Assembly: GCA_965243165.1 (NCBI GenBank)
Contig: OZ251535.1
Span: forward strand, 1,281,572-1,345,571
Length of the DNA: 64,000 nt
Source of the DNA: Candidatus Spongiisociaceae bacterium
GTDB lineage: Bacteria; Actinomycetota; Acidimicrobiia; Spongiisociales; Spongiisociaceae
Direction: 5' to 3'
Under the pieces are notes generated by a model that made no database searches, was not told the DNA's origin, and saw only the letters and a program-made list of their open reading frames with translations. The translations under genes were made by a program, and so were the position numbers. Within the stretch, counting starts at the first letter, position 1, and every line of letters begins with the position of its first letter. Positions 36,700-64,000 of the stretch are shown here, one piece after another.

Positions 36700-37650
36700 T
36701 CGGGCTAGAGACCCCTAAAAATCCGATGCCCCCTCAAGAGGGACGAGCAGACAGAGCCGACCAGGTGATTTGGATGCGTTGGCCTCACGGCGAAACCCCC
36801 GGCAGAAAACCCGCTGACCAGCAACGACCTCTATCCCCCTCTGCCATCAGCTCGTCTTCTCGAACTGAACCAATCCGAGCAGCAAACTGAACCCAACCCG
36901 AGCAGCACCCCGATTTTCGCGTTCTCCGCCCCCCGCCCCGGCTTCGCCGGGTCTCCCGCCCCCGCCGCCGCCGATCCATTGTTTTCGGGCGCTGGGGGCG
37001 TGTTGGGGCCCTCTGCGCTCGATCCGCCTCGGCACAGCCAGGTTGGCCGCCTTGCCCTTGGAGTTTTGGCTCTGGGCGGAGCGGCCTCTGTATGACCGCA
37101 GCATCCGGATCGGCTGCGGTTTCTGTACCGCCCCAAGGTATCAGGGGGCTGTGACAACTTTCGGCAGCCGGATGGAAGATGATGAAATGAACGGAACCGG
37201 GCCTGAGCACACACACACTGTTTTTCGCGTTCTCTGCCCCCCGGCCCCGGCTTCGCCGGGTCTCCCGCCCCCGCCGCCTCCGATCCATTGTTTTCGGGCG
37301 CTGGGGGCGTGTTGGGGCCCTCTGCGCTCGATTCGCCTCGGCACAGCCAGGTTGGCCGCCTTGCCCTTGGAGTTTTGGCTCTGGGCGGGGCGGCCTCTGT
37401 ATGACCGCAGCATCCGGATCGGCTGCGGTTTGTGTCCGCCTCAAGGTATCAGGGGGGTGTGACAACTTTCGGCAGCCGGATGGAAGGCGGGCTCCGCCGG
37501 CCCTGGTTGGAGGACGAGCGGATATGGGCTGACCAGGTTGTTCGGGTGCGTTGGCCCGGCGGCGAAATTCCTGGCAGGCAACCCCGCCGTCTGCCGGCAA
37601 ACTTCTATCCTTCTCTGCCTATCCGCTCATCTTCTAAGCCTGATGGCCGA
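36700..37650. repeat. MITE-like repeat cluster: S unit (reverse), two tandem L units (reverse, ~36880-37160 and ~37165-37470), S unit (reverse)
   Basis: Shares landmark sequences with the other copies (TTTTCGCGTTCTCCGCCCCCC…, …CCCCAAGGTATCAGGGGG(C/G)TGTGACA). S-unit terminal inverted repeats GGAGGACGAGCGGATATGGG … GCCTATCCGCTCATCTTC. Confidence 0.75.
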
Positions 37651-37652
37651 CA

Positions 37653-39647
37653 TCACGCCGCTAAGGACAGCAAAAGGGCTCGCGAGAGCAAGGCTGCCAT
37701 CTGCCCTCTGGTGATGGGTTGGTCGGGGCAATAGCGGAGCGGGGCGGTTGCACACCCGTCACCGATACCCGCCGCTTTCAGGGCTTCTGCGGCTCGGACA
37801 ACTCGGTCGGGTTGATCCGACATGTCGGCGAACAACCCTTGCACCCTTACGGAAGGAGTGATGAGGTCGAAGATGGAGGCGATCATTTCGGCTATTTCTG
37901 CTCTGGTTACTATCCCGTCCGGATTGAACTCACCGCCCGGCGGCCGCATTACTTCCCTCATTATTTGCTGCTCAACCGCCCACTCCATATAATGTTGGTA
38001 ATTTTCTTCGTAGTCTACGCCTTCTATCTCGTTGGGCATTATCCAGCTTACTTCCCGCGGAAATGACTCCAAAATTGCCGCCGCCCTATACAGGAAGGCC
38101 GCCATCTGCTTTCGGGTGATAGTATCATCCGGGCAGAATCTGCCGCCGCCGCATTCTTGGGCTATCCTGTCGGAAACTATATGTTCTATATATGGTTCGT
38201 GTTCATGGCAGTCGTCATCCGAGAACTGTCCGGCAGGTTTCAAGCGGCCTTCGGAGTCCAAAAGCAGGTCGTGGAGCTCTACTGGGATGGCGCTGCTCAA
38301 CTGATTGGGATGCAGATTCAGGAATATCAGGCCTGGGATTTGGCTGAGTTCGCGGGGGACAGCGCCGGTCAGCTGATTGCAGCCCAGATGCAACCAACCC
38401 AGATTGGTTAGTTTCGATAATTCTGGTGGTATACTGCCTGTCAACTCATTGTGGTACAGATTGAGGGTTCGTAGATTGGTCAGTTGTGAGAGTTGGGTCG
38501 GTATAGGTCCGGTCAATCTATTTCTATCCAGCCCCAGATCTTCAAGGTTGGTTAGTCGGGCGAGCTCGGCTGGTATGGGTCCGGTTAGCCGGTTGTCTCC
38601 CAGCCATAGAGCACTGAGGTTCGTAAGCTGAGAGAGTTGTTTGGGCAGCGGTCCGGTCAAATTGTTTCCCCCCAGTGCGATTGCTGATAGGTCGGTCATT
38701 CGGCCAAGTTGAGGTGGTATGGAGCCGGTCAGGTTGTTGTTGTACAGATAGAGAATACCCAGGTTGGTGAGTTGTGAGAGCTCTGGCGGTATAGAACCGA
38801 CTAATTGATTGTCGCCTAGATCGAGGATTGACAGATTGGCGAGCTGGGACAGTTCTTTGGGTATAGGCCCGGTCAATCGGTTGCCTTGCAATATCAGCAT
38901 TACTAAGTTGGTCATTTGAGATAGCTCGACGGGTATAGGTCCGCTCAGACGGTTGCCGGACATGTTAGAGGCTGTCAGCTTGGTTAGTTGGCCCAATTGG
39001 GCTGGGACAGGCCCCGATAGTTTGTTTGCGAACAGATGCATGGCGGTCAGATTGGTCAGGTTTCCGAACTCACTGGGGATAGGACCGGTCAGCTCATTCA
39101 GGCCTAGATTCATCGTATGCAGTTTGGTGAGGTTTCCGAGCTGAGGCGGGATGGGGCCGGTCAGGTCGTTCTTGCGAAGGTAAAGCAATTCCAGGTTGGT
39201 GAGCCGTCCGAGTTCGGCTGGGATAGCGCCCGAGTGGTTTCCGCGCAGGTGCAGCACTTCGAGGTGGGTCAGGTCTCCGATTTGGGGCGGGATGGGGCCG
39301 GCAACGTCGCTCACTCTGAGTTCGGAGACCCGTTGGTTCTTCATCTCAACGCCGATCCACGAGGTGATCGGTGCGTTGTCGCCTCTGCCCCATTGCCGCA
39401 GGTAATGGTCGGCCTCAAGGCCGGCGTTGTCAGGGTGGCGGGTCCAGACATTGCGGACGGCGACCAATGCCCGGCAGTCATCGACCAGCCCCTGAGGGGA
39501 GGGGTCGTCGACGAAGGTCCCGTCGTAGCAACCGAGAGCGCTGAGGTCGGGGATGGGGTTGCTCTGCGCACCGGCGGACAGCACCAAGGCGGCGGTCAGT
39601 CCGGCGGCGCCCAGGATCGGGGCAGCGGGACAGCGGATTTTCTTCAT
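37653..39647 (-). CDS. Secreted leucine-rich-repeat protein (plant-type LxxLxxLxLxxNxLTGPIPxxLGxLTN repeats) with C-terminal SLH domains
   Basis: 664 aa with signal peptide (MKKIRCPAAPILGAAGLTAALVLSAGA), about 14 consecutive 24-aa LRRs, and C-terminal SLH-like motifs (FCPDDTITRKQMAAFLYRAA; RYCPDQPITRGQMAALLSRAL). Confidence 0.85.
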   Translation of the reverse strand: MKKIRCPAAPILGAAGLTAALVLSAGAQSNPIPDLSALGCYDGTFVDDPSPQGLVDDCRALVAVRNVWTRHPDNAGLEADHYLRQWGRGDNAPITSWIGVEMKNQRVSELRVSDVAGPIPPQIGDLTHLEVLHLRGNHSGAIPAELGRLTNLELLYLRKNDLTGPIPPQLGNLTKLHTMNLGLNELTGPIPSEFGNLTNLTAMHLFANKLSGPVPAQLGQLTKLTASNMSGNRLSGPIPVELSQMTNLVMLILQGNRLTGPIPKELSQLANLSILDLGDNQLVGSIPPELSQLTNLGILYLYNNNLTGSIPPQLGRMTDLSAIALGGNNLTGPLPKQLSQLTNLSALWLGDNRLTGPIPAELARLTNLEDLGLDRNRLTGPIPTQLSQLTNLRTLNLYHNELTGSIPPELSKLTNLGWLHLGCNQLTGAVPRELSQIPGLIFLNLHPNQLSSAIPVELHDLLLDSEGRLKPAGQFSDDDCHEHEPYIEHIVSDRIAQECGGGRFCPDDTITRKQMAAFLYRAAAILESFPREVSWIMPNEIEGVDYEENYQHYMEWAVEQQIMREVMRPPGGEFNPDGIVTRAEIAEMIASIFDLITPSVRVQGLFADMSDQPDRVVRAAEALKAAGIGDGCATAPLRYCPDQPITRGQMAALLSRALLLSLAA

Positions 39648-39689: not shown

Positions 39690-40285
39690 ACCCTAACCCG
39701 ATAAGAGGACGAGCGGACAGGGCTGACCAGGTTGTTGGATGCGTCGGCCTCACGGTGAAACCCCGGCAGACAACCCGCCGGCCCGGCAACGACATCTATC
39801 CCCCTCTGCCTGTCAGCTCGTCTTCTCGACTCAAACCGAAACCAAGCCGGGGGGGGGGGGAGCGCATTCGTTTTTCGCGTTCTCCGCCCCCCGCCCCGGC
39901 TTCGCCGGGTTTCCCGCCGCCGCCGCCGAACCACCGTCTTCGGACACCGAGGACGCGTTGCCGCCCCCTGCGCCCGATCCGCCTCGGCACAGCCAGGTCG
40001 GCCGCCCCGCCCTTGGAGCCTCGGCTCTGGGTAGAACGGCCTCTGTATGACCGCAGCATCCGGATCGGCTGCGGTTTCTGTACCGTCCCAAGGTACCAGG
40101 GGGGTGTGACAGATTTCGGCAGCCGGCTGGAAGGCGGCGCCGCCGGCCCTGGTCAGAGGACGAGCGGCAGGAACCGACCAGGTTGTTCGGGTGCGTTGCC
40201 CGGCGGCGAAACCCCCGGCGGGCAACCCGCCGTCTGCCGACAACTTCTATCCCTCTGCCTGTCTGCTCGTCTTCTGATCCTGATC
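39690..40285. repeat. MITE-like repeat cluster: S (reverse), L (reverse, with an 11-G homopolymer at 39851-39861), S (reverse)
   Basis: Same repeat families as 3931-4505; S-unit terminal inverted repeats present. Confidence 0.75.
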
Positions 40286-44775: not shown

Positions 44776-45282
44776 TCAGGAGAGGCGGAGGATGATGATT
44801 CCGGCGACGGTGATCAGGTTGATGCGGATGGAGTCGCGGATGGCGTTCCATTTCTCGGACTGCCAGCTGACGTACCACTCGGCCCCGACGACCTGGATGA
44901 TCAGGAACCACACGGCCAAGGCCGCCAGGAAGGCGAGGTAGCCGAACAGCTTGGCCGATTCCCAGGCCTCGGCCGCGGCGGTGAGGTTGACGGCCAGGAA
45001 GATGCTGCCCGCCAGGCCCAGCGCGGCTACGGCCAGCTCGCACACCAGGATGGCTGCGAAGGCCGCCCGGTGCAGGGCCGGCGACCGCACTTCCCGCCAT
45101 CGGACGCCGCGGTCCCGGTTGGTGGTGTCCATCGTCATGATGTGGCGGACGAAGTCGAGGTTCGCTCCGGGGGCGGTGAGGTTGTTGAGGGCTGCGACGG
45201 CCGCAGTGACCGCGGTTCCCAGCAGCAGGACGAGGGGTATCAGCCGGAAGGCGGCCTCGGCGGCGGGAAGGGCCGATTCCAT
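44776..45282 (-). CDS. Small integral membrane protein (DUF2165-like)
   Basis: 168 aa with 4 predicted hydrophobic helices. Confidence 0.45.
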   Translation of the reverse strand: MESALPAAEAAFRLIPLVLLLGTAVTAAVAALNNLTAPGANLDFVRHIMTMDTTNRDRGVRWREVRSPALHRAAFAAILVCELAVAALGLAGSIFLAVNLTAAAEAWESAKLFGYLAFLAALAVWFLIIQVVGAEWYVSWQSEKWNAIRDSIRINLITVAGIIILRLS

Positions 45283-45289
45283 GGTTCCC

Positions 45290-45880
45290 TCAAGGCTCTT
45301 CGGGAAGGCGGCGGGCCATGAGCTTTTGGGTCACGCCGCCGATGGTGGCCTCGAAGGCCGCCAGGCTGATCTCCGCCAGGCGGGGGGAGCAGTCGGCGGC
45401 GGCGAAGTTCTGGCGCTCGGCCAGGCGCGCCCAGTGCGGGGCGAGCCGGTTGGGGCCGGTTACGCCCCCCTTGCCCAGGTCGGAGGCAACGTAGCGGATG
45501 TTGGTTACGCCCGAGTTGATGATGCGGATCGTGCACATCTCGCACGGCTCGAGCGAGGTGACCAGGGTGTGTCCGCGCAGGTCGGCCTGCGGGGCGTGTT
45601 CGTTCTCATACCTGGTCAGCAGGGTCATCTCGGCGTGGAGGTCGCTGCGGAACCGGGGGAAGAACATCCGGTTTCGTTCCCTCAGCACCACCCGGCCGTC
45701 CGGATCGGCGATCAGCGCCCCGATGGAGGCGTTCCCCTCCAGCCCGGTCTCGACCGCGTCCGCCACCGTGAGGCGGGAGTGATGGTCGTCCGGCCGCTCG
45801 TCGGGCAACGCTTCTGCCTCGTTGAGCAGGCCCAGAAGAGCGTTCCGCACCTCGGCGGGTACCGCTTCGGCTCCGTCCAT
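45290..45880 (-). CDS. CMP/dCMP-type (CDA fold) nucleoside/nucleotide deaminase
   Basis: Zinc-binding motifs HAEM…PCEMC. Confidence 0.8.
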   Translation of the reverse strand: MDGAEAVPAEVRNALLGLLNEAEALPDERPDDHHSRLTVADAVETGLEGNASIGALIADPDGRVVLRERNRMFFPRFRSDLHAEMTLLTRYENEHAPQADLRGHTLVTSLEPCEMCTIRIINSGVTNIRYVASDLGKGGVTGPNRLAPHWARLAERQNFAAADCSPRLAEISLAAFEATIGGVTQKLMARRLPEEP

Positions 45881-45977
45881 CGCATCCTCCCGAGTCCAGG
45901 TCCGCCCGTCGATTCAGGAACGGCTGTCGGCAAGGCTAGCTAGTTGCTCAGCAGGCCCGAGAGCGCCCCTGGCCTGC

Positions 45978-46059
45978 CCGGGTTTCCGAAAGATTCGAAT
46001 ATCTTTCTCGAGAATAGGCCGATTTCGGCCTTTATTGCCGAAAGATTGTAGAATCTTTC
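45978..46059 (+). promoter_or_regulatory. Paired-palindrome element copy A: two GAAAGAT-N6-ATCTTTC sites 62 bp apart, with a conserved GGCC…GGCCTTTATT spacer
   Basis: GAAAGATTCGAATATCTTTC at 45978-45997 and GAAAGATTGTAGAATCTTTC at 46040-46059. Confidence 0.6.
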
Positions 46060-46079
46060 GGAGGCCGCTGCATGAAGCC

Positions 46080-46615
46080 CTGTGCGCAGGTACCGTCTGG
46101 GCTTCGACCAGGCCAACACACCCAAAAACAACCTGACCAGCCTTACCGCCCGCCCTCTCGAACCCAAACCAAACCGAAAACCCAAGCCCGAAGCCAGCAC
46201 ACCGTTTTTCGCGTTCTCCGACCCCCGCCCCGGCTTCGCCGGGCCCCGCCCCCGCCGCCGCCAAACCATCGTTTTCGGACGCCGGGGGCGCGTTGCGGCC
46301 CCCTGCGCCCGATCCGCCTCGGCACAGCCAGGTCGGCCGCCTCTCCCTTGGAGCCTCGGCCCTGGGCGGAGCGGCCTCTGTATGACCGCAGCATCCGGAT
46401 CGGCCGCGGTTTCTGTACCGAAACAAGGTATCAGGGGGGTATGACACAAATCGGCAACCGGACGGAAGGCGGGCTCCGCCGGCCCCGGTTATCCATCTCA
46501 GAGACGCGCGGATGAGCGTCGACCAGGGTGTTCAGGTCCGCCGGGCGGCCAAAGAACCCCTGGCAGGCACCCCGCCGGCCGCCGGCGGCTTCTACCCTCC
46601 GCCCGCCTGTCCGCG
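46080..46615. repeat. L unit (reverse) followed by a degenerate S unit
   Basis: Landmarks TTTTCGCGTTCTCCGACCCCC… and …AACAAGGTATCAGGGGGGTATGACA. Confidence 0.7.
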
Positions 46616-46631
46616 CTTCTGCTCATAGCCG

Positions 46632-46722
46632 AAAGATTGTACAATCTTTCCGAAAAATATGCCTTTCTGGGCTTTATTACAGAAAGATTGTCATATCTTT
46701 CGCGGGCGCCGAACGATTGTTC
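46632..46722 (+). promoter_or_regulatory. Paired-palindrome element copy B (includes a perfect 20-bp palindrome GAAAGATTGTACAATCTTTC)
   Basis: Sites at 46632-46651 and 46683-46702, followed by a CCGAACGATTGTTC half-palindrome. Confidence 0.6.
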
Positions 46723-46729
46723 TACCGCC

Positions 46730-46930
46730 GCGGTGGTCGTACAGGCGAGCAACAGGGAGGCGCGGACGGCGGGGAACCCTCGATCTGGCGGTGGTGAACG
46801 GGATGGTGGTGCTGGGGAGCGGACGCCATCGGGTGGAGTGGGGGTCAAGGACGGCAAGGCGGCGGCGCCGGCGCCCGAGGAGATGCTTCCCGCCGCTGGC
46901 GGAGGCGGGCCTCGAGGGCTCGGGTCTGCG
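46730..46930 (+). pseudogene. Degenerate ~180 bp duplicate of the translation-initiation region and first ~45 codons of the hydantoinase-like gene (compare 48795-48990); start codon lost (ATG to ACG)
   Basis: About 85-90% identity by eye with GGTCGTACAGGCGAAGCAACAGGGAGGCGCGGATGGCGGGG…CTCGATCTGGCGGTGGTGAACGGGACGGTGGTGCTGGGGAGCGGGCGCCATCGGGTGGG…. Confidence 0.65.
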
Positions 46931-46994
46931 GTGAAAGATATTACAATCTTTTCCCAATAAAGGCATTTTCGGCCTTTATTTCGGAAAGATATTA
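46924..46994 (+). promoter_or_regulatory. Paired-palindrome element copy C (at the 3' end of the regulator gene)
   Basis: GAAAGATATTACAATCTTTT and GGAAAGATATTAATATCTTTCC. Confidence 0.55.
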
Positions 46995-48648
46995 ATATCT
47001 TTCCAGCGGGCGGGCCGGGGGGTTGCCGGCAGGGTAGTAGCGCCGGGCTCTGGTTTGCCCTTTAGCGCGGGCGAGGCCGGCCCTTACAAGATCGTTCAGC
47101 AGATCTCGGACCACTCCCGTTTGTTCGCCCAACAGCTGGCCGCCTTCCACGGTGGAGATGCTTCCACGGCGGACGATCTCGTCGAGAAGGGTCTGCCGCC
47201 GGCGGCTGCGGGCCTGGATGCCGGCGGCGCCGGTTCGCATCACGACCTCGTCGGAGAGCACGTAGCGGGCGCCGCCCCGAACGCCCACCCGTTTGAGCAT
47301 GCCCTTCGCGGCGGCGCCTGCCAGGATTTCGCTTGCGTCGTTGCCGGGCATCAGCTCCCGCAGGCGCCTGGGGGTGACCGATCCCTCCGTGCGGGCGGTC
47401 ACCAGCGCCCGGCGCTCCTCGACGGTCATGGGGTGGTCGGCAAAGAGCTGGAGCCAGATCTGGTCCTCCACGCCGACCAGGGCGCGGTTGCGAAGCGTGA
47501 CGGTCACGGAGGAAGGGGTGGGATCGAAATAGGGGGGCTCCAGAAGCCTGGCCTCCATCTCTCGGAACATGAGTTCCACCCCGTCCCCGTATTCCTCCAC
47601 GAGACCCATGGTTTTCAGCACGCCCATGATCCGGGGGTTGCGGCTGTAGTGCTCGGTCCGGATGTTGTCCACCGTTATGTGGGCGGGCAGCGGCCCCGGA
47701 CTGGTTATCTCCACGCGGTCGTCCCAGACCGTGATGTCGATGGTGGCGCCCGCCAGGCTGTAGTCCCGGTGGGCGAGCGCGTTGGTTACGGCCTCTCGGA
47801 GCACTTCCTGCGGGTACTCCGGGATGGTTTCCCGCCTCACGCCGATCACGGCTTCGAACTGCATGGTGTGATGGGCGATCATCTGCAGGCACTTGTCCAC
47901 GACGAGGGGCAGGGGGCCTTTGATCTCCGCCCGTTCGCTGGTCGGCCCGGGACCGGGGCCGACCCCGGTGCGGCGCACGAACTGCACTCTGGCGGCGGAT
48001 GTGTAGGCGGTGGGGTCTTTGGCGAACAGGACGGCCCCCGCCGTCAACACCTGCACATCCGCCGCTCCTGCGGACGGTTCTGCGACCCCGAGGTCGACGA
48101 GGGCCCGCGCCAGGCTCGACCGCTTTGCGGCCTTTCTGCCGTCGGCCTTCAGCGCCCGGTTCACGACGCCCAGGTCGAAGTCCCCCGGGTCGAAGTATTC
48201 GAGGTGTTCCTCCTCGCCGGGGTGCTCGGAGCGGGCCGCGACGAACCGTCCGAAGGCGTCGCCCCGCAGCGGCTGCGAATCGCCCCCGACGCGCCGCAGG
48301 AGCCTGCCGTCGGGGGTGGTGACGATCCGTTTCCGGACCTCGGGCACCGAGGTGATGGTCAGCTCCACGCCTTCGACGCGGACCGATCCGACCTGAACCT
48401 CGACATCGCATTCGGCCGCGAATCGGTGGATGCGGTCCTGGGTTCTCTGGCTGAGGGGGCACCCGACGATGGTGCGGTCGTCGTCCACGCCGTGGATGAT
48501 CAGCCCTCCGTCTGTCATCGCCATCGCCGGGATGGCGTCGAGCATCCCCCTGGACACCCCACGCTTGAAATCCAGTTCGGCGTGCTCGCGCCGGCCGAAC
48601 CGCTCCCAGAACTCGTCGGCGGTCATCTCGTCGGGGATGTCGGTGATG
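46992..48648 (-). CDS. Putative transcriptional regulator of the Schlafen-like AlbA_2 (divergent AAA) + ATPase-like (HATPase_c_4) + HTH family (COG2865-like)
   Basis: MTSITDIPDEMTADEFWERFGRREHAELDFKRG… N-terminal AlbA_2-like region. Central region VTNALAHRDYSLAGATIDITVWDDRVEITSPGPLP is typical of these ATPase-like domains. RBS GAGGAAG before ATG at 48648. The ORF track extends further 5' only by reading through the palindrome element. Confidence 0.55.
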
Positions 48649-48667
48649 GATGTCATGTCTTCCTCGG

Positions 48668-48760
48668 GAAAGATATTACAATCTTTCCGGAGAATACGCC
48701 TGTTTGGGCCTTTATTGCCGAAAGATTGTAATATCTTTCGCGGGCCGAACAATTGTTCGG
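48668..48760 (+). promoter_or_regulatory. Paired-palindrome element copy D, between the divergent regulator and the hydantoinase-like operon (candidate operator/promoter region)
   Basis: GAAAGATATTACAATCTTTC (48668-48687), GAAAGATTGTAATATCTTTC (48720-48739) and the perfect palindrome CCGAACAATTGTTCGG (48745-48760). Confidence 0.6.
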
Positions 48761-48850
48761 CTGTAAGCCCCGGCTTCGCCGGGTGCGCCTCCGGCCGTCC
48801 TGGGTTAGGCTTGGCGGCGGTCGTACAGGCGAAGCAACAGGGAGGCGCGG

Positions 48851-50461
48851 ATGGCGGGGGCACCCCTCGATCTGGCGGTGGTGAACGGGACGGTGGTGCT
48901 GGGGAGCGGGCGCCATCGGGTGGGGGTGGGGGTCAAGGACGGCAAGGTGGCGGTGCTGGCGCCCGAGGAGATGCTTCCCGCCGCCGCCCGCACCATCGAC
49001 GCCAAGGGCAACTACGTGCTGCCGGGGGTGGTGGACTCCGAGGCGCACCCCGGCTGCTACGTGCCCTTCGACTACGACATGAAGACCGAGTCGAGGGCGG
49101 CCGCCGCCGCCGGCATCACCACCTGGGGGATCCAGGCGCCCACCACCCGGCTCGGCACCAAACCCTTCAAGGAGGTCGTCGCCAAGGCGGATGTGGTGTC
49201 GTTCAACGAGTCGTTCCCCTCGGGGCGGGATGTGATAAACGAGCACAGCCACGTCGACGCCTACCTGACCTACATGCTCGAAACCGACGAGCACGCCCGC
49301 GAGATACCCCAGTACGCCGAGGAGCACGGGGTCACCTCCTTCAAGCTCTACCTGCAGACCCGCTCCATGAAGGGCATGTCCGACGACGACGACACCAACT
49401 GGCCGTCCCGCCGCGCCGGACTCGGCACCGGCATCGACGACGGCACCGTGTTCCTGGTCATGGAGGAGACCGCCCACCTCGGCTATCCGGGGATCGTCCA
49501 CATCCACCCGGAGAACTGGGAGATCGGGCGGATATTCGAAGAGCGGCTGCGGGCCGGCGGGCGCACCGACTTCGGGGCGTGGACGGACCGCTCGCCCGAC
49601 CTCATGGAGGCGCACCATATCCGCTCCTACGCCTACCTGGCCATGCAGACCCCCGGACGCGTGCCCCTCTACCTGCAGCACTGCACCACCCGGCTCTCCT
49701 TCGAGGAAGTGGCCAAGGCCCGCGCCGAGGGGCTGGAGCTCTACGCCCAGACCGGTCCGCCCTGGCTGTGGGCCGAACCCGAATACGGCTGGCGCATCAA
49801 CGTCCCCCTCCGCCGCCGCGACAACATCGAGGCGCTGTGGGTGGCCCTCGCCGAGGGGATCGTGGACGTGGTCGGCTCCGACCACGTGGTCGGGTGGGAG
49901 CCGGCCTCCTACGAGCAGATGTACAACCCGGTCATCTGGGACTGCCGCACCGGATTCTCCCGGGTGGAGCTGTTCCTGCCGGTGTTGCTCTCCGAGGGCG
50001 TCAACAAGGGGCGCATCAGCCTGGAGCGGGCGGTGCAGGTCAGCAGCGAGAACCCGGCCAAGACCTCCGGGCTGTGGGGCAGGAAAGGGTCGCTGCTGCC
50101 GGGGTTCGACGCCGACTTCGTGATCATCGACCTGGGGCGGGAGGTGAAGGTCGGCAAGGAGCACATCAACACCCGCTCCGGCTGGTCGATCATGGAAGGC
50201 CACACCTTCACCGGCTGGCCGGTCATGACCATCCTGCGGGGCGAGGTGAGCGCCGAGTGGGCCGACGACTCGCCGGGGATGCGCCCGGTGGGGGCGCCGC
50301 GCGGCGAGTACCTGCCCCGTTCCCTGCGCCCCAAGCGGGGGGTGATCGACACCAGCCCGGTGCGGGCGGCCCCCGCCGACCGCTGGTTGGCCGACGATTT
50401 CCTCCGCCCCGGTTTCTCCCCCGAGACCGCCAAGTACCAGGGCGTCAGAGAGGGAGGCTGA
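48851..50461 (+). CDS. Cyclic amidohydrolase (D-hydantoinase/dihydropyrimidinase/allantoinase-like, amidohydrolase superfamily)
   Basis: 536 aa; N-terminal LAVVNGTVVLG…VKDGKVAVLAP…IDAKGNYVLPGVVDSEAHP and internal metal-binding His motifs typical of DHOase/hydantoinase-type enzymes. Confidence 0.75.
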   Translation: MAGAPLDLAVVNGTVVLGSGRHRVGVGVKDGKVAVLAPEEMLPAAARTIDAKGNYVLPGVVDSEAHPGCYVPFDYDMKTESRAAAAAGITTWGIQAPTTRLGTKPFKEVVAKADVVSFNESFPSGRDVINEHSHVDAYLTYMLETDEHAREIPQYAEEHGVTSFKLYLQTRSMKGMSDDDDTNWPSRRAGLGTGIDDGTVFLVMEETAHLGYPGIVHIHPENWEIGRIFEERLRAGGRTDFGAWTDRSPDLMEAHHIRSYAYLAMQTPGRVPLYLQHCTTRLSFEEVAKARAEGLELYAQTGPPWLWAEPEYGWRINVPLRRRDNIEALWVALAEGIVDVVGSDHVVGWEPASYEQMYNPVIWDCRTGFSRVELFLPVLLSEGVNKGRISLERAVQVSSENPAKTSGLWGRKGSLLPGFDADFVIIDLGREVKVGKEHINTRSGWSIMEGHTFTGWPVMTILRGEVSAEWADDSPGMRPVGAPRGEYLPRSLRPKRGVIDTSPVRAAPADRWLADDFLRPGFSPETAKYQGVREGG

Positions 50462-50464
50462 GCC

Positions 50465-51226
50465 GTGGCGGTCTGGGACGACGTTATAACCGAGACCGAC
50501 CGGGCGGTTTTCGAGGAGGCCGGCTGGGGCCGCCGGGCCGGATACGGAGAGCGCCCGGCGGTCATGGTGATCGACGTCAACTACAACTTCTGCGGCGACC
50601 GCGCCGAGCCGATCCTCGATTCGATCAAGAGATGGCGGTATTCCTGCGGGCCGGCCGCCTGGGAACGGGGGATCCCCGCCATCCGGAAGATACTGGAGGC
50701 GGCCCGCCGCAAGCGCCTTCCGGTCGTCTACACCACCAACCCCCGCCGGGCCGACGGCTTCGACCTGGGGGTGTGGACGCTGAAGAGCACCCGCGCCGAG
50801 GACGAGGTGGACGTCATGGGGCACAAGGGCAACGAGATCGTGGCCGAGGTGGCGCCCCGGGAGGGCGATCTGTTCATCGAGAAGCGCAAGCCCTCCGCCT
50901 TCTTCGGCACCCCTTTGGTCAGCCACCTCAACATGATGGGGGCCGATTCGCTCATACTCACCGGGACCACCACCAGCGGCTGCGTGCGCGCCAGCGCGGT
51001 GGACGCCCTGTCCTACGACTTCAGGGTGACCATTCCCCACGAGGCTGTGTTCGACCGGGGCGGGGCGTCCCACAAGATCGCCCTCTTCGACCTGCACATG
51101 AAGTACGTGGACGTCACCGATCTCGCCGATGTCCTCGCCTACCTGGAAGGTCTGCCCGCCGGTCTCTTCGACCGCACCTATCCGCCCGCCGCCCAAGCCG
51201 CCCGGGCCGCCCGGAAGGAGTCCTGA
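50465..51226 (+). CDS. Isochorismatase-family cysteine hydrolase (N-carbamoylsarcosine-amidase-like)
   Basis: 253 aa; PAVMVIDVNYNF…, SLILTGTTTSGCVRASAVDALSYDFRVTIPHEAV (catalytic Cys context). Confidence 0.75.
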   Translation: MAVWDDVITETDRAVFEEAGWGRRAGYGERPAVMVIDVNYNFCGDRAEPILDSIKRWRYSCGPAAWERGIPAIRKILEAARRKRLPVVYTTNPRRADGFDLGVWTLKSTRAEDEVDVMGHKGNEIVAEVAPREGDLFIEKRKPSAFFGTPLVSHLNMMGADSLILTGTTTSGCVRASAVDALSYDFRVTIPHEAVFDRGGASHKIALFDLHMKYVDVTDLADVLAYLEGLPAGLFDRTYPPAAQAARAARKES

Positions 51227-51807
51227 TGGGCCTCGATTTCCCGATCCGCAAGTTCATCGTCCAAGCCGAGGTCGAGCACAGCCGGGAAGGCGTCGCCGCC
51301 GACCCGCCCCTCTGCAAGGCGGTGGCGGCGGCCGTGATCCGCAACCCCTACGCCGGCGCCTATCACGAGGACCTGTCGGAGGCGGTCGAGTTCTCCGCCG
51401 GCCTCGGCCCGTTGCTGGGGGACATGGTCCTGCAGGCCCTCGGCGCGCCGGTCGCCTCCTACGGCAAGGGCGGGATCGCCGGCCTGGACGGCTCGCAGGA
51501 GCACGCGGTGATGTTCCTTTCCACCGCCTTCGCCGACCCCTTCCGCGAGTTCGTCGGGGGCGGGGCGGCTTGGATTTCGTCGGCCACCGTCACCGCCTCG
51601 GCGGGGGCGCCGCTCACCATCCCGCTCGCCCACAAGGACGCCCTCTACGTACGCGACCACTACGACGCCGTCACCCTCTACCCGGGCGACGCGCCCCGCC
51701 CCGACGAGGTGGTGGTGGCGGTGGCCGTCGCCAACCGGGGCCGCCTCAACGCCCGGCTGGGCGGCCTGGCCCCCGAAGACGCGGTCGGCAAGGACGGTCT
51801 GCGCTGA
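51226..51807 (+). CDS. AA_synth/DUF1185 family protein (so-called amino-acid-synthesis family, frequently encoded next to hydantoinase-type genes)
   Basis: ATG 51226 overlaps the upstream stop (ATGA). About 193 aa MGLDFPIRKFIVQAEVEHSREGVAADPPLCKAVAAAVIRNPYAGAYHEDL… This is the C-terminal in-frame part of the artefactual long ORF 48430..51807. Confidence 0.55.
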   Translation: MGLDFPIRKFIVQAEVEHSREGVAADPPLCKAVAAAVIRNPYAGAYHEDLSEAVEFSAGLGPLLGDMVLQALGAPVASYGKGGIAGLDGSQEHAVMFLSTAFADPFREFVGGGAAWISSATVTASAGAPLTIPLAHKDALYVRDHYDAVTLYPGDAPRPDEVVVAVAVANRGRLNARLGGLAPEDAVGKDGLR

Positions 51808-51830
51808 CATGAACCGCCGGGGTTGACGGG

Positions 51831-53027
51831 GTGGCGGGGCCGCAGCGCACCGCGGTGGTGAACATAGGGGCGCTGGTCACCGGCGACCTGTCCCGGCCGA
51901 CGGCCGAAGCCGACAGCCTGCTCATCGAAGACGGGCGGATCGCGGCGGTCGGGGCGGGCTTGGGGGCGGAGGGCGCCGACCAGGTGGTGGACGCCAACGG
52001 CGCCACCGTGGGGCCGGGCCTGATCGACTCCCACTGCCATGTGGTGATAGGGGACTACACCCCCCGCCAGCAGACGGTGGGGTTCTTGAGTTCCTACGTG
52101 CACGGGGGGATCACCCAGGCGATTTCGCCCGGCGAGATCCACGCCCCCGGACGGCCGCACGACGCCCACGGGGTGGTGGCGCTGGCCGTTCTCGCCCAGC
52201 GGTCGTGGAGCAACTACCGGCCCAACGGCATGAAGGTGCACGGGGGCGCGGTGGTGCTGGAGCCGACCCTGGAGGAGGGCCACTTCCAGTACATGGCCGA
52301 CCAGGGGATCCGCCTCGCCAAGTTCGGGTTCGGCCTCTACGGCGACCCGGCCGACGGCCTGCCCCAGGTCCGGGCCGCCCAGGAGATCGGCATCAAGGTC
52401 ATGTGCCACTCGGGCGGCGCCTCCATCCCCGGCTCGAAGCCCATCACCTCCGAGCACCTCATGCTGCTCCGCCCCGACGTGTGCGGCCACATCAACGGCG
52501 GCCCCACCTCCCTCGACGACGAAGGGCTGGAGGAGATCATCGCCTCCACCGATCTGGTGCTGCAGATCGTTCAGGCCGGCAACCTGCGCAGCGCCCTCCG
52601 CATCGTCGGCCTCGTCCTCGAGCACGGCGCCGAGGGCCGGGTGATCCTCGGTTCCGACACCCCGACCGGCACCGGGGTCATGCCGCTGGGGGTGTTGAAG
52701 ACCATGGCCGAGCTGTCATCGCTCACCGGCGCCGACCCGGCGGTGGTGTGGGCCTGGGCTTCGGGGGCGACGGCCGACGTCTACGAGCTGGAGGCCGGGA
52801 AGATCGAGGCGGGCCGCCCGGCCGATCTGGTGATAGCCGACGCCCCCTGGGGTTCCTACGGGGGCGATGCGCTGGGGGCCCTGGCCCGCGGGGACATCCC
52901 CGGCATCAGCGCGGTGATCATCGACGGGCGGATCAGGGCCCTCCGCAGCCGCAACACCCCCGCCGCCGCGCGCCGGGCAACGGTAACGCCCGAGATCGGC
53001 GAGCTCCCGGGATCGGCCCACGTCTGA
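51831..53027 (+). CDS. Metal-dependent amidohydrolase (amidohydrolase-1/enamidase-like)
   Basis: GTG start; VDANGATVGPGLIDSHCHV metal-binding motif; 398 aa. Confidence 0.7.
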   Translation: MAGPQRTAVVNIGALVTGDLSRPTAEADSLLIEDGRIAAVGAGLGAEGADQVVDANGATVGPGLIDSHCHVVIGDYTPRQQTVGFLSSYVHGGITQAISPGEIHAPGRPHDAHGVVALAVLAQRSWSNYRPNGMKVHGGAVVLEPTLEEGHFQYMADQGIRLAKFGFGLYGDPADGLPQVRAAQEIGIKVMCHSGGASIPGSKPITSEHLMLLRPDVCGHINGGPTSLDDEGLEEIIASTDLVLQIVQAGNLRSALRIVGLVLEHGAEGRVILGSDTPTGTGVMPLGVLKTMAELSSLTGADPAVVWAWASGATADVYELEAGKIEAGRPADLVIADAPWGSYGGDALGALARGDIPGISAVIIDGRIRALRSRNTPAAARRATVTPEIGELPGSAHV

Positions 53028-53149
53028 GCCGGGCGGCTCCAAGGGCTGCCCCGGCAAGAACCTCGTGTAAGAAAAAGCGCGGACAGGCGGGCGGAGGGCA
53101 GAAGCCGCCGGCGGCCGGCGGGTTGCCTGCCGGGGGTTCTCCGGCCGCC

Positions 53150-53665
53150 CGGCAGACCTGAACACCCCGGTCGACGCTCATCCGCGCGTCTCTGAGATGA
53201 ACAACCGGGGGGTCGGCGGAGCTTCGGCTTCCGTCCGGCTGCTGATTTGTGTCACACCCCCCTGATACCTTGGAGCGGTACATAAACCGCAGCCGATCCG
53301 GATGCTGCGGTCATACAGAGGCCGCTCCGCCCAGAGCCGAGGTTCCAAGGGCGGGGCGGTCGACCTGGCTGTGCCGAGGCAGATCGGGCGCAGAGGGAGG
53401 CAACGCGCCCTCGGCGCCCGAAGACGGTGGTTCGGAGGCGGCGGGGGAGGGGGCCCGGCGAAGCCGGGGCGGGGGGCGGAGAACGCGAAAAACAGTATGT
53501 TGCTTCGGGCTTGGGTTTGCGGTTTGGTTTGGGTTCGAGAGGGCGGGCGGTAGGGGCTGACCAGGTTGTTTTGGGTGCGTTGGCCTGGTGCGAAACCCGG
53601 GCGGCGCCCGCTGACCCGCTGTAACTTCATTCCTTCTGCCTATCCGCTCGTCTTGATCACGGCTG
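53150..53665. repeat. MITE-like repeat cluster: degenerate S, L (forward, ~53230-53520), S (reverse)
   Basis: CACACCCCCCTGATACCTTGGAGCGGTACATAAACCGCAGCC…GGAGAACGCGAAAAAC; the S unit ends with GCCTATCCGCTCGTCTTG. Confidence 0.75.
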
Positions 53666-58080: not shown

Positions 58081-60047
58081 GCGCAGCGCTGGAGGGGCGG
58101 CGGGAGGAGGTGGCCGCCGCCGCCCGGATGCTGGCCGCCGCCGGTCTGGTGGAAGCCTTCGGCCACGTCTCGGCGAGGATTACGGGCGGGTTTCTGATCA
58201 CCAGCACCCGGCCCATGGTGGAAGCCCGGGCCGAAGACGTGATCGAGGTGCGGGGCGGGCGCCCGGTGTCGGGTCCGGCCGAAGCCCTTCCCATGGAGGC
58301 CCCGTTGCATGCCGCCGTCTACGGCGCCCGCCCCGATGCGGAGGCCGTCTGCCGGGGGCATCCTCCCTATGCGGCGGTGTGGGGGGCGGGGGCCGAGGCT
58401 CTTCCCCTGCTGCACGGCCTGGGGGGGATGAGCGGGGCGGCGGCGCCGGTTCACCCCGATATCGAGCTGATCAAGACCCCGGAGCAGGCGGAGGCGGCGG
58501 CCGGCGCGCTGGGGGGCGGCTGGTCGCTCCTGCTGCGGGCCAACGGATGCCTGACGGTGGGCGGGGACCTCCTCGAAGCGGCCGTCCGCCTGTGGTTCCT
58601 CGAGGAGCGGGCCCGGATAGCGGTGCAGGCCCGCCGGGCCGGGATCGCCCCCGGGGAGAGCGCCTCCGCCTGGCTCCGGCGGCTGGAGGATTCGGACGCC
58701 GAGCTGGTCAGAGCCAAGGCCTGGTTCCTCAGCGCCTACGGAAGCCCCCGAACCGGGCCCGCCGGGGGGCGGGGGGCGGCGGCCGCCGGGGCCGAGCAGC
58801 TCGACAACCGGCCGGCGATGACCGGAGAGGAGGCGGACGGCTTCCGGGCCGGCTTCGTCGAGCACCTGTGCCAGACCGTCCCGGGCATCAAGGAGACGGT
58901 GATAGTCGACGCCGCCGGCTGTTCGCTCAAGACCGCCGAGGGGCGCATCCTGTTGGACATGATCTCGGGGATCGCGGTCTCCAACGTCGGGCACTGCCAC
59001 CCGGCGGTGGTGGAGGCCGTCCGGCGGCAGGCGGGCCGCTTCGCCCACGTGGACGTGTACGGGCGTTTCACCCTGCCGCCGCAGGTGGAGATCGCCCGCC
59101 GCCTGGCGTCTGTAACTCCGGACGGCCTGGACAAGGCCTTCCTGACCAGCACCGGAACCGAAGCCACCGAAGGGGCCTTGAAGCTGGCCCGCAAGTACAC
59201 GGGCCGTCCGGGGTTCACGGCCTTCGAGCAGTCGTTCCACGGGCGTACCTTCGGGGCGCTCTCCGTTACCTGGAAGGAGGAATGGCGCAAACCCTTCGAG
59301 CCCCTGCTGGGGCCGGTGCGCTTCGCTCCCTTCGACGACCTGGATGCGGCAGCGGCGGCGGTCGGCGAAGACACGGCGGCGGTCATAGTGGAGCCGATCC
59401 AAGGCGAGGGCGGGGTGCGGGTGCCGTCGGAGGATTTCCTGCCCGGTCTGCGCGAGCTCTGCACCGAGCGGGGCGCTTTGCTGATCTGCGACGAGGTGCA
59501 GGGCGGGATGGGCCGCTCCGGCCGGTGGTTCTCCTGCCAGAACTGGGGTGTAACGCCGGACATCATCACGGTGGCCAAGGCTTTCGGCGGCGGCCTGCCG
59601 CTGGGGGCGTTCATCTCCACCGAGGAGATATTTGCCACCTTCCTCGACCCGCCCCTGTCCCACCTCACCACCTTCGGCGGCAACCCCGTCTCGTGCGCCG
59701 CCGCCGCCGCCGCCTTCGACGTGATCCAGAGCGAAGGCCTGGTGGAGCGCTCCCGCGAGCTGGGCCGGTACCTGCGGGCCGGCCTCCGCGAGGCGGCGCA
59801 GCGCCATCCCGGAGCGGTGGCCGAAGTCAGGGGCGTCGGCCTGTGGTGCGCCTTCGACGTCACCCCGCCCGAACTGGCCCAACCCCTCGTAGAAGAAATG
59901 CTGCACCGGGGTGTAGTGGCCGGCTCCATGCTCAATTCGGCGGGAACCATCCGAGTAGCTCCCCCGCTGGTGATAGAGCGCACCGAAATAGACCGCTTCC
60001 TGGCCGTTCTCGCTTCTTCGCTCGACGCGACAGCAGATGCACACTGA
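58077..60047 (+). CDS. Fusion protein: N-terminal class II aldolase/adducin-like domain (~220 aa) + C-terminal class III (omega) pyridoxal-phosphate aminotransferase (~430 aa)
   Basis: The N-terminal region has a class-II-aldolase-like fold signature (VEAFGHVSARI…). The C-terminal region has SGIAVSNVGHCHPAVVEAV, DEVQGGMGRSGRWF and the TVAKAFGGGLP Lys motif of AT-III enzymes. One continuous 656-aa frame. Confidence 0.7.
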   Translation: MSAALEGRREEVAAAARMLAAAGLVEAFGHVSARITGGFLITSTRPMVEARAEDVIEVRGGRPVSGPAEALPMEAPLHAAVYGARPDAEAVCRGHPPYAAVWGAGAEALPLLHGLGGMSGAAAPVHPDIELIKTPEQAEAAAGALGGGWSLLLRANGCLTVGGDLLEAAVRLWFLEERARIAVQARRAGIAPGESASAWLRRLEDSDAELVRAKAWFLSAYGSPRTGPAGGRGAAAAGAEQLDNRPAMTGEEADGFRAGFVEHLCQTVPGIKETVIVDAAGCSLKTAEGRILLDMISGIAVSNVGHCHPAVVEAVRRQAGRFAHVDVYGRFTLPPQVEIARRLASVTPDGLDKAFLTSTGTEATEGALKLARKYTGRPGFTAFEQSFHGRTFGALSVTWKEEWRKPFEPLLGPVRFAPFDDLDAAAAAVGEDTAAVIVEPIQGEGGVRVPSEDFLPGLRELCTERGALLICDEVQGGMGRSGRWFSCQNWGVTPDIITVAKAFGGGLPLGAFISTEEIFATFLDPPLSHLTTFGGNPVSCAAAAAAFDVIQSEGLVERSRELGRYLRAGLREAAQRHPGAVAEVRGVGLWCAFDVTPPELAQPLVEEMLHRGVVAGSMLNSAGTIRVAPPLVIERTEIDRFLAVLASSLDATADAH

Positions 60048-60096
60048 CCCCCAATTTGTGCAGTTATCGAAACAGCATGGACCAGAAGCCTCGGAA

Positions 60097-60125
60097 TTGA
60101 CAGCACAGGGCAAGTTGTCTACAAT
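60097..60125 (+). promoter_or_regulatory. Near-consensus sigma70 promoter TTGACA-N17-TACAAT upstream of the lipoprotein gene
   Basis: TTGACA 60097-60102, TACAAT 60120-60125, about 55 nt before the TTG start with GAGGAG RBS. Confidence 0.5.
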
Positions 60126-60178
60126 CAATTCATGTTGAAAGAAGAATCAAGCAAATAAAGTAGCGAGGAGCGGGAAAA

Positions 60179-62299: not shown

Positions 62300-62394
62300 T
62301 CAATGCCGGTTTGATATCGTTGCCCGATACGCCAGTATCCGCACCCCCCCGATCCCGTTGATCCATCCCCCAATGACCGAAGCAGGAGTAGACG

Positions 62395-62889
62395 ATGAAT
62401 GATTGGAACATGTACCTGCTGGCGGTCGGCCCTGCGGGCAGCGGAGCCGTCTCCGAAGGTCTGTTGCAAGATTTCCATGAGCGCATTCCGTTGCCGGGGC
62501 GCTCCACCGGAGGAGGCAACGATCGGTACACGGCGCGCTTCTATGTGACTGCTTCCTCGATCACCGAGGCGGTGGAGGCTGCGGTCGAAGTCTTCAGAAC
62601 CGCCGCCGCGGAGGCCGGCATGCCCGATTGGCCTCTGCGGCAGGTGGAAGCGGTGCACGAGGACGAGGACCTGGCTTTGGTCCTCGCCGATGGATCCCTG
62701 CCCGAGATGTGGCGCACCAGCGACATCGCCGATCACCTGGGGGTGTCCGAAGCCCGCGCCGATGACCTCACCAGACGCGAAGGCTTCCCGCCGCCTTTCG
62801 GAACGACGCCCTTCACCCGCATATGGGCCGCCGACGATATCCGGAAGTTTCTGGACAGCCGGGCCGCCAGCCGCAAGGCGCCGGTGTAG
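62395..62889 (+). CDS. Hypothetical protein with possible C-terminal HTH (excisionase/MerR-like)
   Basis: Good RBS AGGAG 7 nt before ATG; …MWRTSDIADHLGVSEARADDLTRREGFPPPF resembles a helix-turn-helix. Confidence 0.35.
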   Translation: MNDWNMYLLAVGPAGSGAVSEGLLQDFHERIPLPGRSTGGGNDRYTARFYVTASSITEAVEAAVEVFRTAAAEAGMPDWPLRQVEAVHEDEDLALVLADGSLPEMWRTSDIADHLGVSEARADDLTRREGFPPPFGTTPFTRIWAADDIRKFLDSRAASRKAPV

Positions 62890-62945
62890 TCGCTCAAGGA
62901 CCATGCACTGTGATATTCGGGGAGGTTGTCCCTCTAGCTAACTAA

Positions 62946-63371
62946 CTAATAAGAATAAAAGAGAGTATCTTTATGCATCTTGCTTTGGATTTTTTCAAAG
63001 AGCTCTCTTTCTGTAGTAGTTCCATCTTTGGCGAGACTAAGAGCATGTGATAAACCTACTGAGTTGGTACTTTTCTGTTCTTCAATGGCTAGGGTTAATT
63101 CACCGGAGCTAGAGATGGTAAGCTGATAGGAATGAAGGTGCAAAGCATCGCCTTTATCGGCACTCTTGAAATGATCAAAGACAAATTGATTCGCCATATA
63201 GTTCATTAGATCCTGTTGTAATACTAGGACAAGCTTACGGCCGAGGGATTCAAATATCCCAATTTTATGGTGAAGTTGCATGAGGATGGTTTTAGCTGTC
63301 ATCTTCCAGTTGATTCCCATAGGCTTATCCTCAAGTTCAACAGGATCACTAATAGCGTTAACTCCTTCCAA
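62946..63371 (-). CDS. Hypothetical protein in an AT-rich (~40% GC) island
   Basis: ORF only; composition sharply different from the genome background. Confidence 0.35.
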   Translation of the reverse strand: MEGVNAISDPVELEDKPMGINWKMTAKTILMQLHHKIGIFESLGRKLVLVLQQDLMNYMANQFVFDHFKSADKGDALHLHSYQLTISSSGELTLAIEEQKSTNSVGLSHALSLAKDGTTTERELFEKIQSKMHKDTLFYSY

Positions 63372-63438
63372 AAATCTTTGTCTATGTGGCCAGACTGTGC
63401 CTGTAGTATCAAGGGCCTGTATTTCAATTCCTACAAAG

Positions 63439-63801: not shown

Positions 63802-64000
63802 AATGCTAAAGACATGTAGCTAGGCTTGTGGAGAAGGACAACACTCTCACGAAGCTCGATGCCATGCTTGGTATTCCAGCGTGTTCTAAATACATCAATA
63901 GAATCCAACGATAAACCTTCCATTGAGGCCGCATCAGCTAGCAACTTGTCTGATGGAACTTTTACACCGTTAAAGGCGGAATCTCCTATCACAATCGCAA
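63798..64000 (-). CDS. Hypothetical protein, partial at window end; overlaps the start of 63439..63801 by 4 nt (ATGA)
   Basis: ORF 63798..63992, AT-rich. Confidence 0.2.
   Translation of the reverse strand, partial: AIVIGDSAFNGVKVPSDKLLADAASMEGLSLDSIDVFRTRWNTKHGIELRESVVLLHKPSYMSLAL

Follow-up and report, generated by a model that had tools for sequence, protein, structure and literature searches.

Paired palindromic operators that are phased on the DNA helix are known from autoregulated repressors such as TetR, which acts at tetO1/O2 within a divergent promoter, and the cI protein of phage lambda, which acts at OR and is made from the leaderless PRM transcript. The prokaryotic Schlafen proteins (pSlfn) present a different picture: no DNA target is given for any member, the active members are fusions with DUF262 and Ig-like domains that act as phage-triggered tRNases, and the HisKinase-HTH (helix-turn-helix) architecture, which makes up 19% of prokaryotic Schlafens, is functionally untested there (PMC13056530, Nat Microbiol 2026). 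Here we describe a 64,000-nucleotide stretch of contig OZ251535.1 (the window) from a Candidatus Spongiisociaceae bacterium of the Acidimicrobiia, in which the gene for a 554-residue protein of this architecture, R (46992-48656, minus strand), lies among four copies of a paired-palindrome element, which we call units. Comparison of the locus with its relatives makes it quite likely that the units are a compact promoter and operator module of the adjacent gene R, duplicated in this genome, with R as the presumed binder of the palindromes. A literature search found no paper describing a DNA site for the family of R.

The predicted layout at R resembles that of TetR and lambda cI in its dyad-symmetric sites of 16-20 bp, two of which are phased on one face of the helix, in their overlap with a -10 element and transcription start, in the divergent-promoter arrangement, and in the leaderless or nearly leaderless regulator mRNA. 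It differs in that the putative binder is a 550-residue three-module protein with nuclease-like and ATPase-like domains, in that the palindromes of a unit are separated by ~51 bp from centre to centre, far wider than the spacing of adjacent operators, and in that the whole 72-bp unit is one large inverted repeat. A paired and phased palindromic operator is thus familiar in itself; what is new is its owner, which belongs to a Schlafen class without a known DNA target, and its conservation across phyla.

An earlier reading of the window, made from its letters only (the sequence-only reading), had identified eight GAAAGAT-N6-ATCTTTC sites arranged in four units, and all eight are present. When up to two mismatches are allowed, GAAAGATNNNNNNATCTTTC has eight matches in the window, seven perfect and one with a single mismatch, starting at 45988, 46040, 46631, 46682, 46933 (the site with the mismatch), 46984, 48668, and 48720. 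Shuffled sequence gave a mean of 0.06 matches, with none of 100 shuffles attaining eight, and the broader core AAGATTNNNNAATCTT recovers the identical eight sites and no others. The sites are therefore far beyond chance expectation and limited to the R locus. They form four pairs with a start-to-start spacing of 51-52 bp, so that the core of a unit is ~72 bp long; the units of the sequence-only reading are real, but its length of ~90 bp was too great and its third unit (46924-46994) was placed ~9 bp too far to the left. Each 20-bp palindrome has the dyad symmetry of an operator-type site, with 0-1 mismatch across the 14 specified positions. Within each pair the two 20-mers are also reverse complements of one another, spacers included (ATTACA and TGTAAT in unit 4), a property that the sequence-only reading had missed and that makes the entire 72 bp one long imperfect inverted repeat. 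As single-stranded DNA the units fold strongly (dG -17 to -24 kcal/mol, z -6 to -8). The conserved spacer motif noted previously is found as GGCCTTTATT in units 1, 3, and 4 and as GGGCTTTATT in unit 2.

On the plus strand the order of features is DUF2165 gene, deaminase gene, unit 1, L repeat, unit 2, dead amidohydrolase start, unit 3, R, unit 4, and amidohydrolase operon. Unit 4 (48668-48739; palindromes 48668-48687 and 48720-48739) lies between R and the amidohydrolase operon, is equivalent to the ancestral "unit A" of related strains, and is predicted to be R's own promoter and operator. Its R-side palindrome stops 11 nt before the R ATG, with GAGGAAG in between. Unit 3 (46933-47003; palindromes 46933-46952, with the mismatch, and 46984-47003) overlaps the R stop codon at 46992-46994 and, judged by position, is the counterpart of the "unit B" located downstream of R in close relatives. 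Unit 2 (46631-46701; palindromes 46631-46650 and 46682-46701, both perfect) lies between the L repeat and the dead amidohydrolase start and is a copy of unit 4 carried along with the duplicated gene start. Unit 1 (45988-46059; palindromes 45988-46007 and 46040-46059) lies 108 nt upstream of the deaminase gene start and is a candidate operator or promoter for the deaminase-DUF2165 pair. Among the four units the palindrome arms differ at 3 of 168 pairwise positions, whereas the central spacers differ at 56 of 193 and the N6 spacers at 33 of 72, and the arms of unit 2 have been kept although this unit now heads a dead gene fragment. Arms that are kept while spacers drift point to continued selection, or gene conversion, acting on candidate binding sites. 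The sequence-only reading had also described an occasional third palindrome, and this is CCGAACAATTGTTCGG, a perfect 16-bp palindrome at 48745-48760 in the leader or promoter region of the amidohydrolase operon, with a degenerate version, CCGAACGATTGTTC, at 46709-46722; it is kept only in the nearest strains.

Evidence that the units belong to R comes from its orthologues. R has about a thousand homologues, the top 120 of which have at least 61% identity. We recovered the loci of six close homologues, and distant loci were collected with an R-alignment scan that took one genome per species. Orthologues with 50-72% identity are found in Acidimicrobiia, Gammaproteobacteria, Vicinamibacterales, other Acidobacteria, Spirochaetia, Dehalococcoidia, Chloroflexia, Binatia, Solirubrobacterales, Nocardioides, and Geodermatophilus. 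Of the 47 scored loci, which span at least seven phyla, 41 carry two palindromes of 20 bp, spaced by 50-52 bp, directly upstream of R, at -75 to -115 of its start. Only the nearest Acidimicrobiia have the amidohydrolase operon next to R, and the other neighbours are not conserved. Site and regulator thus co-occur despite differing flanks and neighbours, which is the pattern of a phylogenetic footprint, and because the pair is found beside R whatever the neighbours, the element belongs to R and not to the metabolic genes. These observations lend good support to the proposal of a duplicated, cooperative operator array made in the sequence-only reading, and they call for a correction of its assumption that R is primarily a regulator of the amidohydrolase operon, as the unit travels with R itself.

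The pair is also rare elsewhere in these loci. Away from the R promoter, comparable scores are reached by the downstream units of close Acidimicrobiia, at 26-27 of a possible 28, and by three additional units or sites that precede R in L010, L023, and L052, at 22-27. At all other loci the top-scoring pair not adjacent to R reaches 14-21, compared with up to 28 beside R. The few that lie neither beside R nor just downstream of it are extra units or single sites 250-1600 bp upstream of R. In L011 two complete units lie 150 bp apart in front of R (7754-7973), L023 has an additional perfect single palindrome 550 bp upstream (position 7450), and L052 has a unit 1.6 kb upstream of the R match (6415-6485). 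Distant members of the family, at 24-37% identity, showed no such pairs in front of their genes, so the element is specific to the R orthogroup. The orthologues in L008-L055 are 55-72% identical although they come from very distant phyla, and they have differing neighbours, and many of their hosts are metagenome-assembled genomes (MAGs) from sponges or other aquatic symbioses; the SB0661 bins among the sponge-symbiont MAGs derive from Ircinia ramosa (PMC11706023). This distribution suggests that a module of R plus its operator has spread horizontally within sponge and aquatic-symbiosis communities.

A scan of a metagenome collection for AAGAT-N6-ATCTT pairs at unit spacing returned 44 loci. 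Six of these are non-repetitive and GC-rich, and they comprise five contigs on which the pair lies beside an R homologue and one, L089, on which it lies beside a deaminase homologue; the others are AT-rich chance matches or tandem repeats. In L089 (3026-3420) a half unit (one palindrome and AATTAAAGG) is followed, after a 290-bp unrelated insert without homology to the L repeat, by a full unit, behind which lies a deaminase-DUF2165 pair. The 3.3 kb upstream lack R and hold amidohydrolase, metallo-beta-lactamase-fold, and SnoaL-like genes. Among the tandem repeats, L092, L094, L095, L108 (6567-6959), L121, and L127 (JGI Ga0194038-40) carry arrays of a 51-bp sequence, with up to 7.7 copies that are 97% identical, and each repeat has a TCAAGAT-N6-ATCTTGA site whose half-site variant and phase are those of the R units of some lineages. 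These loci contain no R homologue and their large flanking open reading frames (ORFs) have no Pfam match, and with no R homologue or informative neighbours the arrays are probably unrelated to R units.

As an alternative to an operator, the sequence-only reading had considered a small palindromic mobile or recombinogenic element that mobilizes adjacent DNA, in the manner of a miniature inverted-repeat transposable element (MITE) or a repetitive extragenic palindromic (REP) element able to form a cruciform. The units do share with REP and MITE sequences imperfect palindromes of tens of bp, several intergenic copies, and cruciform potential. The 72-bp inverted repeat with its strong folding as single-stranded DNA would fit such an element, as would the duplication of a unit together with a gene start on at least two occasions (the amidohydrolase start here and the 5' end of R in L003 and L006), a deletion junction within the units of L007 at a TGTAAT microhomology, and the half unit, insert, and full unit of L089. 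However, the units are not dispersed but tied to the promoter of one gene family across phyla, with a position and orientation fixed relative to the R start codon. No copies are found in the 64-kb window outside this locus, the orthologue loci have none beyond R and its flanks, and in the non-repetitive GC-rich metagenome contigs the unit occurs only beside R or the deaminase, so the REP-like spread that would have marked a generic repeat is seen in none of these three sets. No direct repeats (target-site duplications) flank the units and no transposase is found at them, the sole trace being an ISL3 fragment downstream of unit B in L003 and L006, and the specific core is conserved far beyond the needs of a structural palindrome. 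A mobile element is therefore very improbable as an explanation. Recombination at the units is best understood as a by-product of the repetition of similar sequences; the units may promote local rearrangement, and a recombinogenic side-effect of this kind is conceivable alongside operator function.

How the operator module came to be present in four copies can be reconstructed in part from close relatives. In L001, L002, L003, and L006 the order is amidohydrolase operon, unit, R, and unit, with the operon and R divergent, and both units flanking R are kept although the intergenic DNA around them cannot be aligned; synteny between R and the amidohydrolase operon extends across L001-L009. The two-unit arrangement in close relatives indicates that the ancestral state in this group of Acidimicrobiia is two units, not four. 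A deaminase gene follows the downstream unit in L001, L003, and L006, and a deaminase-DUF2165 pair follows a unit in L001, L003, L006, and L089. The additional units in the present genome stem from duplication of a segment that comprised one unit, the amidohydrolase leader, and the first ~130 nt of its coding sequence. The dead copy (46726-46896, plus strand) can be aligned with 48810-48984 over 171 nt at 93% identity with four gap columns, and it has a start codon mutated from ATG to ACG (46766-46768) as well as frame-breaking indels, in agreement with the duplicated gene start and mutated start codon of the sequence-only reading. The extra copies are common to close strains. In L005, whose R is 98% identical, unit 3 is present as well, with the dead amidohydrolase fragment behind it, and L007, with 88% DNA identity, has R, a hybrid unit, and the L repeat, which looks like the arrangement of the window after a deletion between TGTAAT microhomologies within units 3 and 2. 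The sharing of this arrangement suggests that the duplication predates the split of these strains.

A second event of this type is apparent in L003 (11697-12273) and L006 (11698-12275), where a copy of the R ribosome-binding site and of its ~13 initial codons stands behind the downstream unit, joined in frame to an N-terminal ISL3 transposase fragment (Zn_ribbon_ISL3, HTH_Tnp_ISL3). This is an independent duplication of a unit plus the adjacent gene start, which gives at least two such events and hints that the downstream unit was originally copied from the upstream one. The four units in the window would be explained if unit B, R, unit A, and the amidohydrolase start had been duplicated in tandem and one copy of R had then been lost, with insertion as an alternative history. 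Comparison of the flanks of units 1 and 3 with each other and with the flanks of unit B in relatives gave nothing significant, and the order of the events given here is our inference. R itself is ~10 residues longer here than in relatives (46992-47040, minus strand), ending in ...YYPAGNPPARPLERY before the stop codon. Relative to L001 the ancestral stop codon and ~45 bp beyond it are absent, so that translation of R now enters unit 3. An exact-sequence look-up of R in public assemblies gave no match, and the closest strain came from the homology search.

The 41 units upstream of R were used for motif statistics and show how the element is built. Their consensus is nAAAGATT-N4-AATCTTTn, with the core AAGATT-N4-AATCTT; the distal site is nAAAGATTnnnnAATCTTTn and the proximal site nAAAGATT-TGAT-AATCTTTn. 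T7 and A14 are invariant, and the AAGATT and AATCTT arms carry 1-2 bits per position. Outer arm positions vary in parallel between lineages, which have GAAAGAT, TCAAGAT, GGAAGAT, CCAAGTT, or TCAATAT, and mismatches within the arms show no G-T bias. The centre between the two palindromes is weakly conserved in sequence, with A-tracts on one side and T-tracts on the other, and is fixed in length. In the proximal site the conserved, asymmetric TGAT centre creates TGnTAATCT, which resembles an extended -10 element, in most lineages (TAATAT in the window). An ATG or GTG follows the proximal palindrome by 2-7 nt at most loci, with an overall range of 2-20 nt. This geometry fits an operator that overlaps the promoter of a leaderless or short-leader mRNA, and the features of the motif are those expected of a DNA site that a symmetric protein recognizes and that overlaps a promoter, not of an RNA stem.

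The same data bear on the idea that the palindromes act in RNA, as hairpins in 5' leaders or a 3' untranslated region that could serve as an attenuator, an RNase site, or a binding site for the Schlafen RNase domain. The arms co-vary between lineages as the strands of a stem would, R carries a predicted RNase domain, and unit 3 lies at the 3' end of the R mRNA. However, base identity is conserved beyond what pairing needs and there is no excess of G-U pairs, the stems are A/T-rich 7-mers in genomes of 62-74% GC, the phasing of 50-52 bp is kept while the intervening sequence is not, and Rfam gave no matches. With a start codon 2-7 nt after the proximal palindrome in most orthologues there is no room for a leader, which places the element upstream of or at the transcription start. 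We give an RNA element very little chance of being the explanation.

The predicted domains of R are consistent with a DNA-binding protein of the HisKinase-HTH class. Pfam identifies SLFN_AlbA_2 (PF04326; E 1.3e-7, above the curated cut-off) and HATPase_c_4 (E 7e-22), in agreement with the AlbA_2/ATPase-like gene divergent from the amidohydrolase operon of the sequence-only reading. The N-terminal sequence REHAELDFK contains the Ex4DxK motif (E24-x4-D29-x-K31), for which we used the Ex4(E/D)xK definition of PMC13056530, and E24, D29, and K31 are invariant in 24 orthologues. In an AlphaFold model of R, with a pLDDT confidence score of 76.5, the middle of the protein resembles GHKL kinases (PDK-like Foldseek matches) and the C terminus resembles tandem winged helices (weak MarR/SelB/ScpB-like Foldseek matches, E 1e-2 to 5e-2), which would equip R for binding DNA. 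The only solved structure that matches the model over its full length is that of DIP2311 from Corynebacterium diphtheriae (PDB 3LMM; Foldseek E 3e-20, ~20% identity; phmmer E 3e-14), a distant and uncharacterised structural-genomics protein. R thus shares with the pSlfn HisKinase-HTH proteins the PF04326 domain with its motif, the GHKL/HATPase_c_4 middle, and, by prediction, an HTH region in the form of C-terminal winged helices, and this combination of Schlafen, GHKL, and winged-helix parts places it in that architecture. It differs in lying outside a recognisable defence island and in having a conserved twin operator in its own promoter.

In the mechanism that we propose, R would bind each 20-bp palindrome, with its AAGATT-N4-AATCTT core, as a dimer. 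A distance of 50-52 bp, or about five helical turns, would place both dimers on the same face of the DNA, where cooperative binding could give a dimer of dimers. The R-proximal palindrome would overlap the -10-like element and the start of R transcription, so that its occupancy would silence transcription of R, and the distal palindrome, which faces outward, would be able to gate the promoter of a divergent neighbour likewise. In the Acidimicrobiia lineage of the window the module faces the amidohydrolase operon, with a second copy downstream of R placed ahead of the deaminase-DUF2165 pair. The signal might act through the GHKL domain, as ATP or another ligand, or be connected with the nuclease domain. 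R probably also controls the amidohydrolase operon and the deaminase-DUF2165 pair, which is supported by the unit of L089 that precedes a deaminase gene without R upstream. The fuller proposal, in which R is a sequence-specific DNA-binding autoregulator of the Schlafen family whose operator has been copied onto genes for N-heterocycle catabolism (the hydantoinase-like operon and the deaminase) in sponge-associated Acidimicrobiia, is one that we put forward tentatively, as a possibility.

The units could instead be operators or promoter elements bound by another factor, such as a global regulator of nitrogen or catabolite metabolism or a dedicated sigma factor. The same L089 unit, with no R within 3.3 kb upstream, is compatible with another binder, and association of residues with half-site variants gave nothing clear in favour of R. 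On the other hand, R is the sole gene that always accompanies the unit, in at least seven phyla where the neighbours are otherwise unrelated. A factor encoded elsewhere would need to be co-transferred or universal and yet act only at R, which is unparsimonious, and the dyad symmetry argues against a promoter for a sigma factor alone. We consider another binder improbable.

Several observations bear on the promoter argument, or weigh against R as the binder or against its control of the metabolic genes. A scan of 45800-48900 for generic sigma-70 promoters and terminators gave no sites and no full promoter, and the argument for a promoter rests for this reason on geometry across species. Pfam found no HTH model in the C-terminal 162 residues of R, where the weak winged-helix assignment depends on the pLDDT-76 model and the Foldseek matches. 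In the mutual-information search of R residues against half-site variants, which is confounded by phylogeny, the signal did not cluster in the winged helices. Paired palindromes were not found upstream of distant family members (24-37% identity), and the invariant Schlafen nuclease motif indicates that control of transcription may not be the main job of R. For the metabolic genes, the downstream unit faces no obvious target gene in L002 and L008, and in L003 and L006 ~640 bp separate unit A from the amidohydrolase gene. These two observations make control of metabolic genes less secure than autoregulation, which is the secure part of the proposed scheme as judged from the comparative data.

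A further alternative is that R is mainly a toxic or defence effector of the Schlafen type, for which the twin operator merely provides autorepression, with the copies near metabolic genes being non-functional by-products of duplication. The invariance of the Ex4DxK motif fits an effector, as do the architecture of the pSlfn HisKinase-HTH class (PMC13056530) and a PADLOC match of the N-terminal half of R to the Schlafen-GHKL part of a pAgo model. R also behaves as a stand-alone module with variable contexts and high identity across phyla, and the downstream units of L002 and L008 have no target. Against this, PADLOC found no defence proteins among the six neighbours tested, which are metabolic, so that R lacks a defence-island context, and no relatives of R were found in viral contigs. 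The palindromes are moreover intact in all four units of the window, in unit B of relatives, and in the deaminase-side unit of L089, which has no R. A primary effector role for R is compatible with most of the data and overlaps with our preferred explanation on autoregulation, and we regard it as a serious alternative, if an unlikely one.

The metabolic genes around R are arranged in two groups. On the plus strand, divergent from R, the amidohydrolase operon (48851-53027) encodes a hydantoinase/dihydropyrimidinase-like amidohydrolase (48851-50461), an isochorismatase-family hydrolase (50465-51226), an AA_synth protein (51223-51807), and a second amidohydrolase (51831-53027). On the minus strand, downstream of unit 1, are genes for a protein with a cytidine/dCMP-deaminase fold (45290-45880) and a DUF2165 membrane protein (44776-45282). 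The dead amidohydrolase start described above consists of the leader and the first ~130 nt of the coding sequence. A hairpin in the amidohydrolase leader, GCCCCGGCTTCGCCGGG (48767-48783), is a short palindrome that is also present inside the L repeat (46227-46243), and the 48-bp stretch that bears it is absent from the duplicated copy beside unit 2. Rfam and tRNA scans of the window gave no matches.

The L repeat at 46093-46618 (plus strand) is a GC-rich interspersed sequence of ~530 bp that occupies nearly all of the space between units 1 and 2 and is outside the operator. The sequence-only reading had recognized this repeat, and five additional copies are present in the window, at 53075-53604 (minus), 3931-4378 (minus), 39869-40279 (plus), 37214-37635 (plus), and 36890-37178 (plus). 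The six copies are ~430-530 bp long with 80-89% identity, and share a strongly conserved core, CTCTGTATGACCGCAGCATCCGGATCGGCTGCGGTTTCTGTACCG...CAAGGTATCAGGGGGGTGTGACA, and a GCCCCGGCTTCGCCGGGC hairpin. The repeat is without a match in Rfam, contains no ORF that matches Pfam, and could be a MITE or an RNA gene of unknown type. It is also found in L007, with pieces in L003 and L006.

Elsewhere in the window, four tandem paralogous giant ORFs of 2110, 2289, 2139, and 2235 residues (9216-36361, plus strand) have a repeat period of ~7 kb, lower GC content (0.56-0.70), strong G-skew, and only sub-threshold Pfam matches (SLH, Calx-beta), and they probably encode repetitive cell-surface proteins. At 37653-39647 (minus strand) lies a gene for a leucine-rich-repeat protein that carries an SLH domain at its C terminus. 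Its repeats are of a eukaryote-like type, and eukaryote-like repeat proteins of this kind are reported to be enriched in sponge symbionts. The region 60001-64000 has a GC content of 0.50-0.52, compared with ~0.70 in flanking DNA, holds a gene for an NMT1/THI5-like substrate-binding protein (60179-62299), and may be foreign or recently acquired.

For annotation, proteins of the R type are often mislabelled as "ATP-dependent DNA helicase RecG", and the palindromes should not be recorded as REP or MITE repeats. The locus also illustrates how a regulon may grow, through duplication of operator-plus-promoter cassettes together with adjacent gene starts. The 72-bp twin operator is a first candidate cis-element for the Schlafen-HisKinase-HTH class, and it offers both a testable handle on a class that makes up about a fifth of prokaryotic Schlafens and a search pattern for its regulon in closed genomes. 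If the proposed link to metabolic genes is true, it would also give this class its first regulatory role, with a "defence-type" Schlafen protein wired into the control of metabolic genes.

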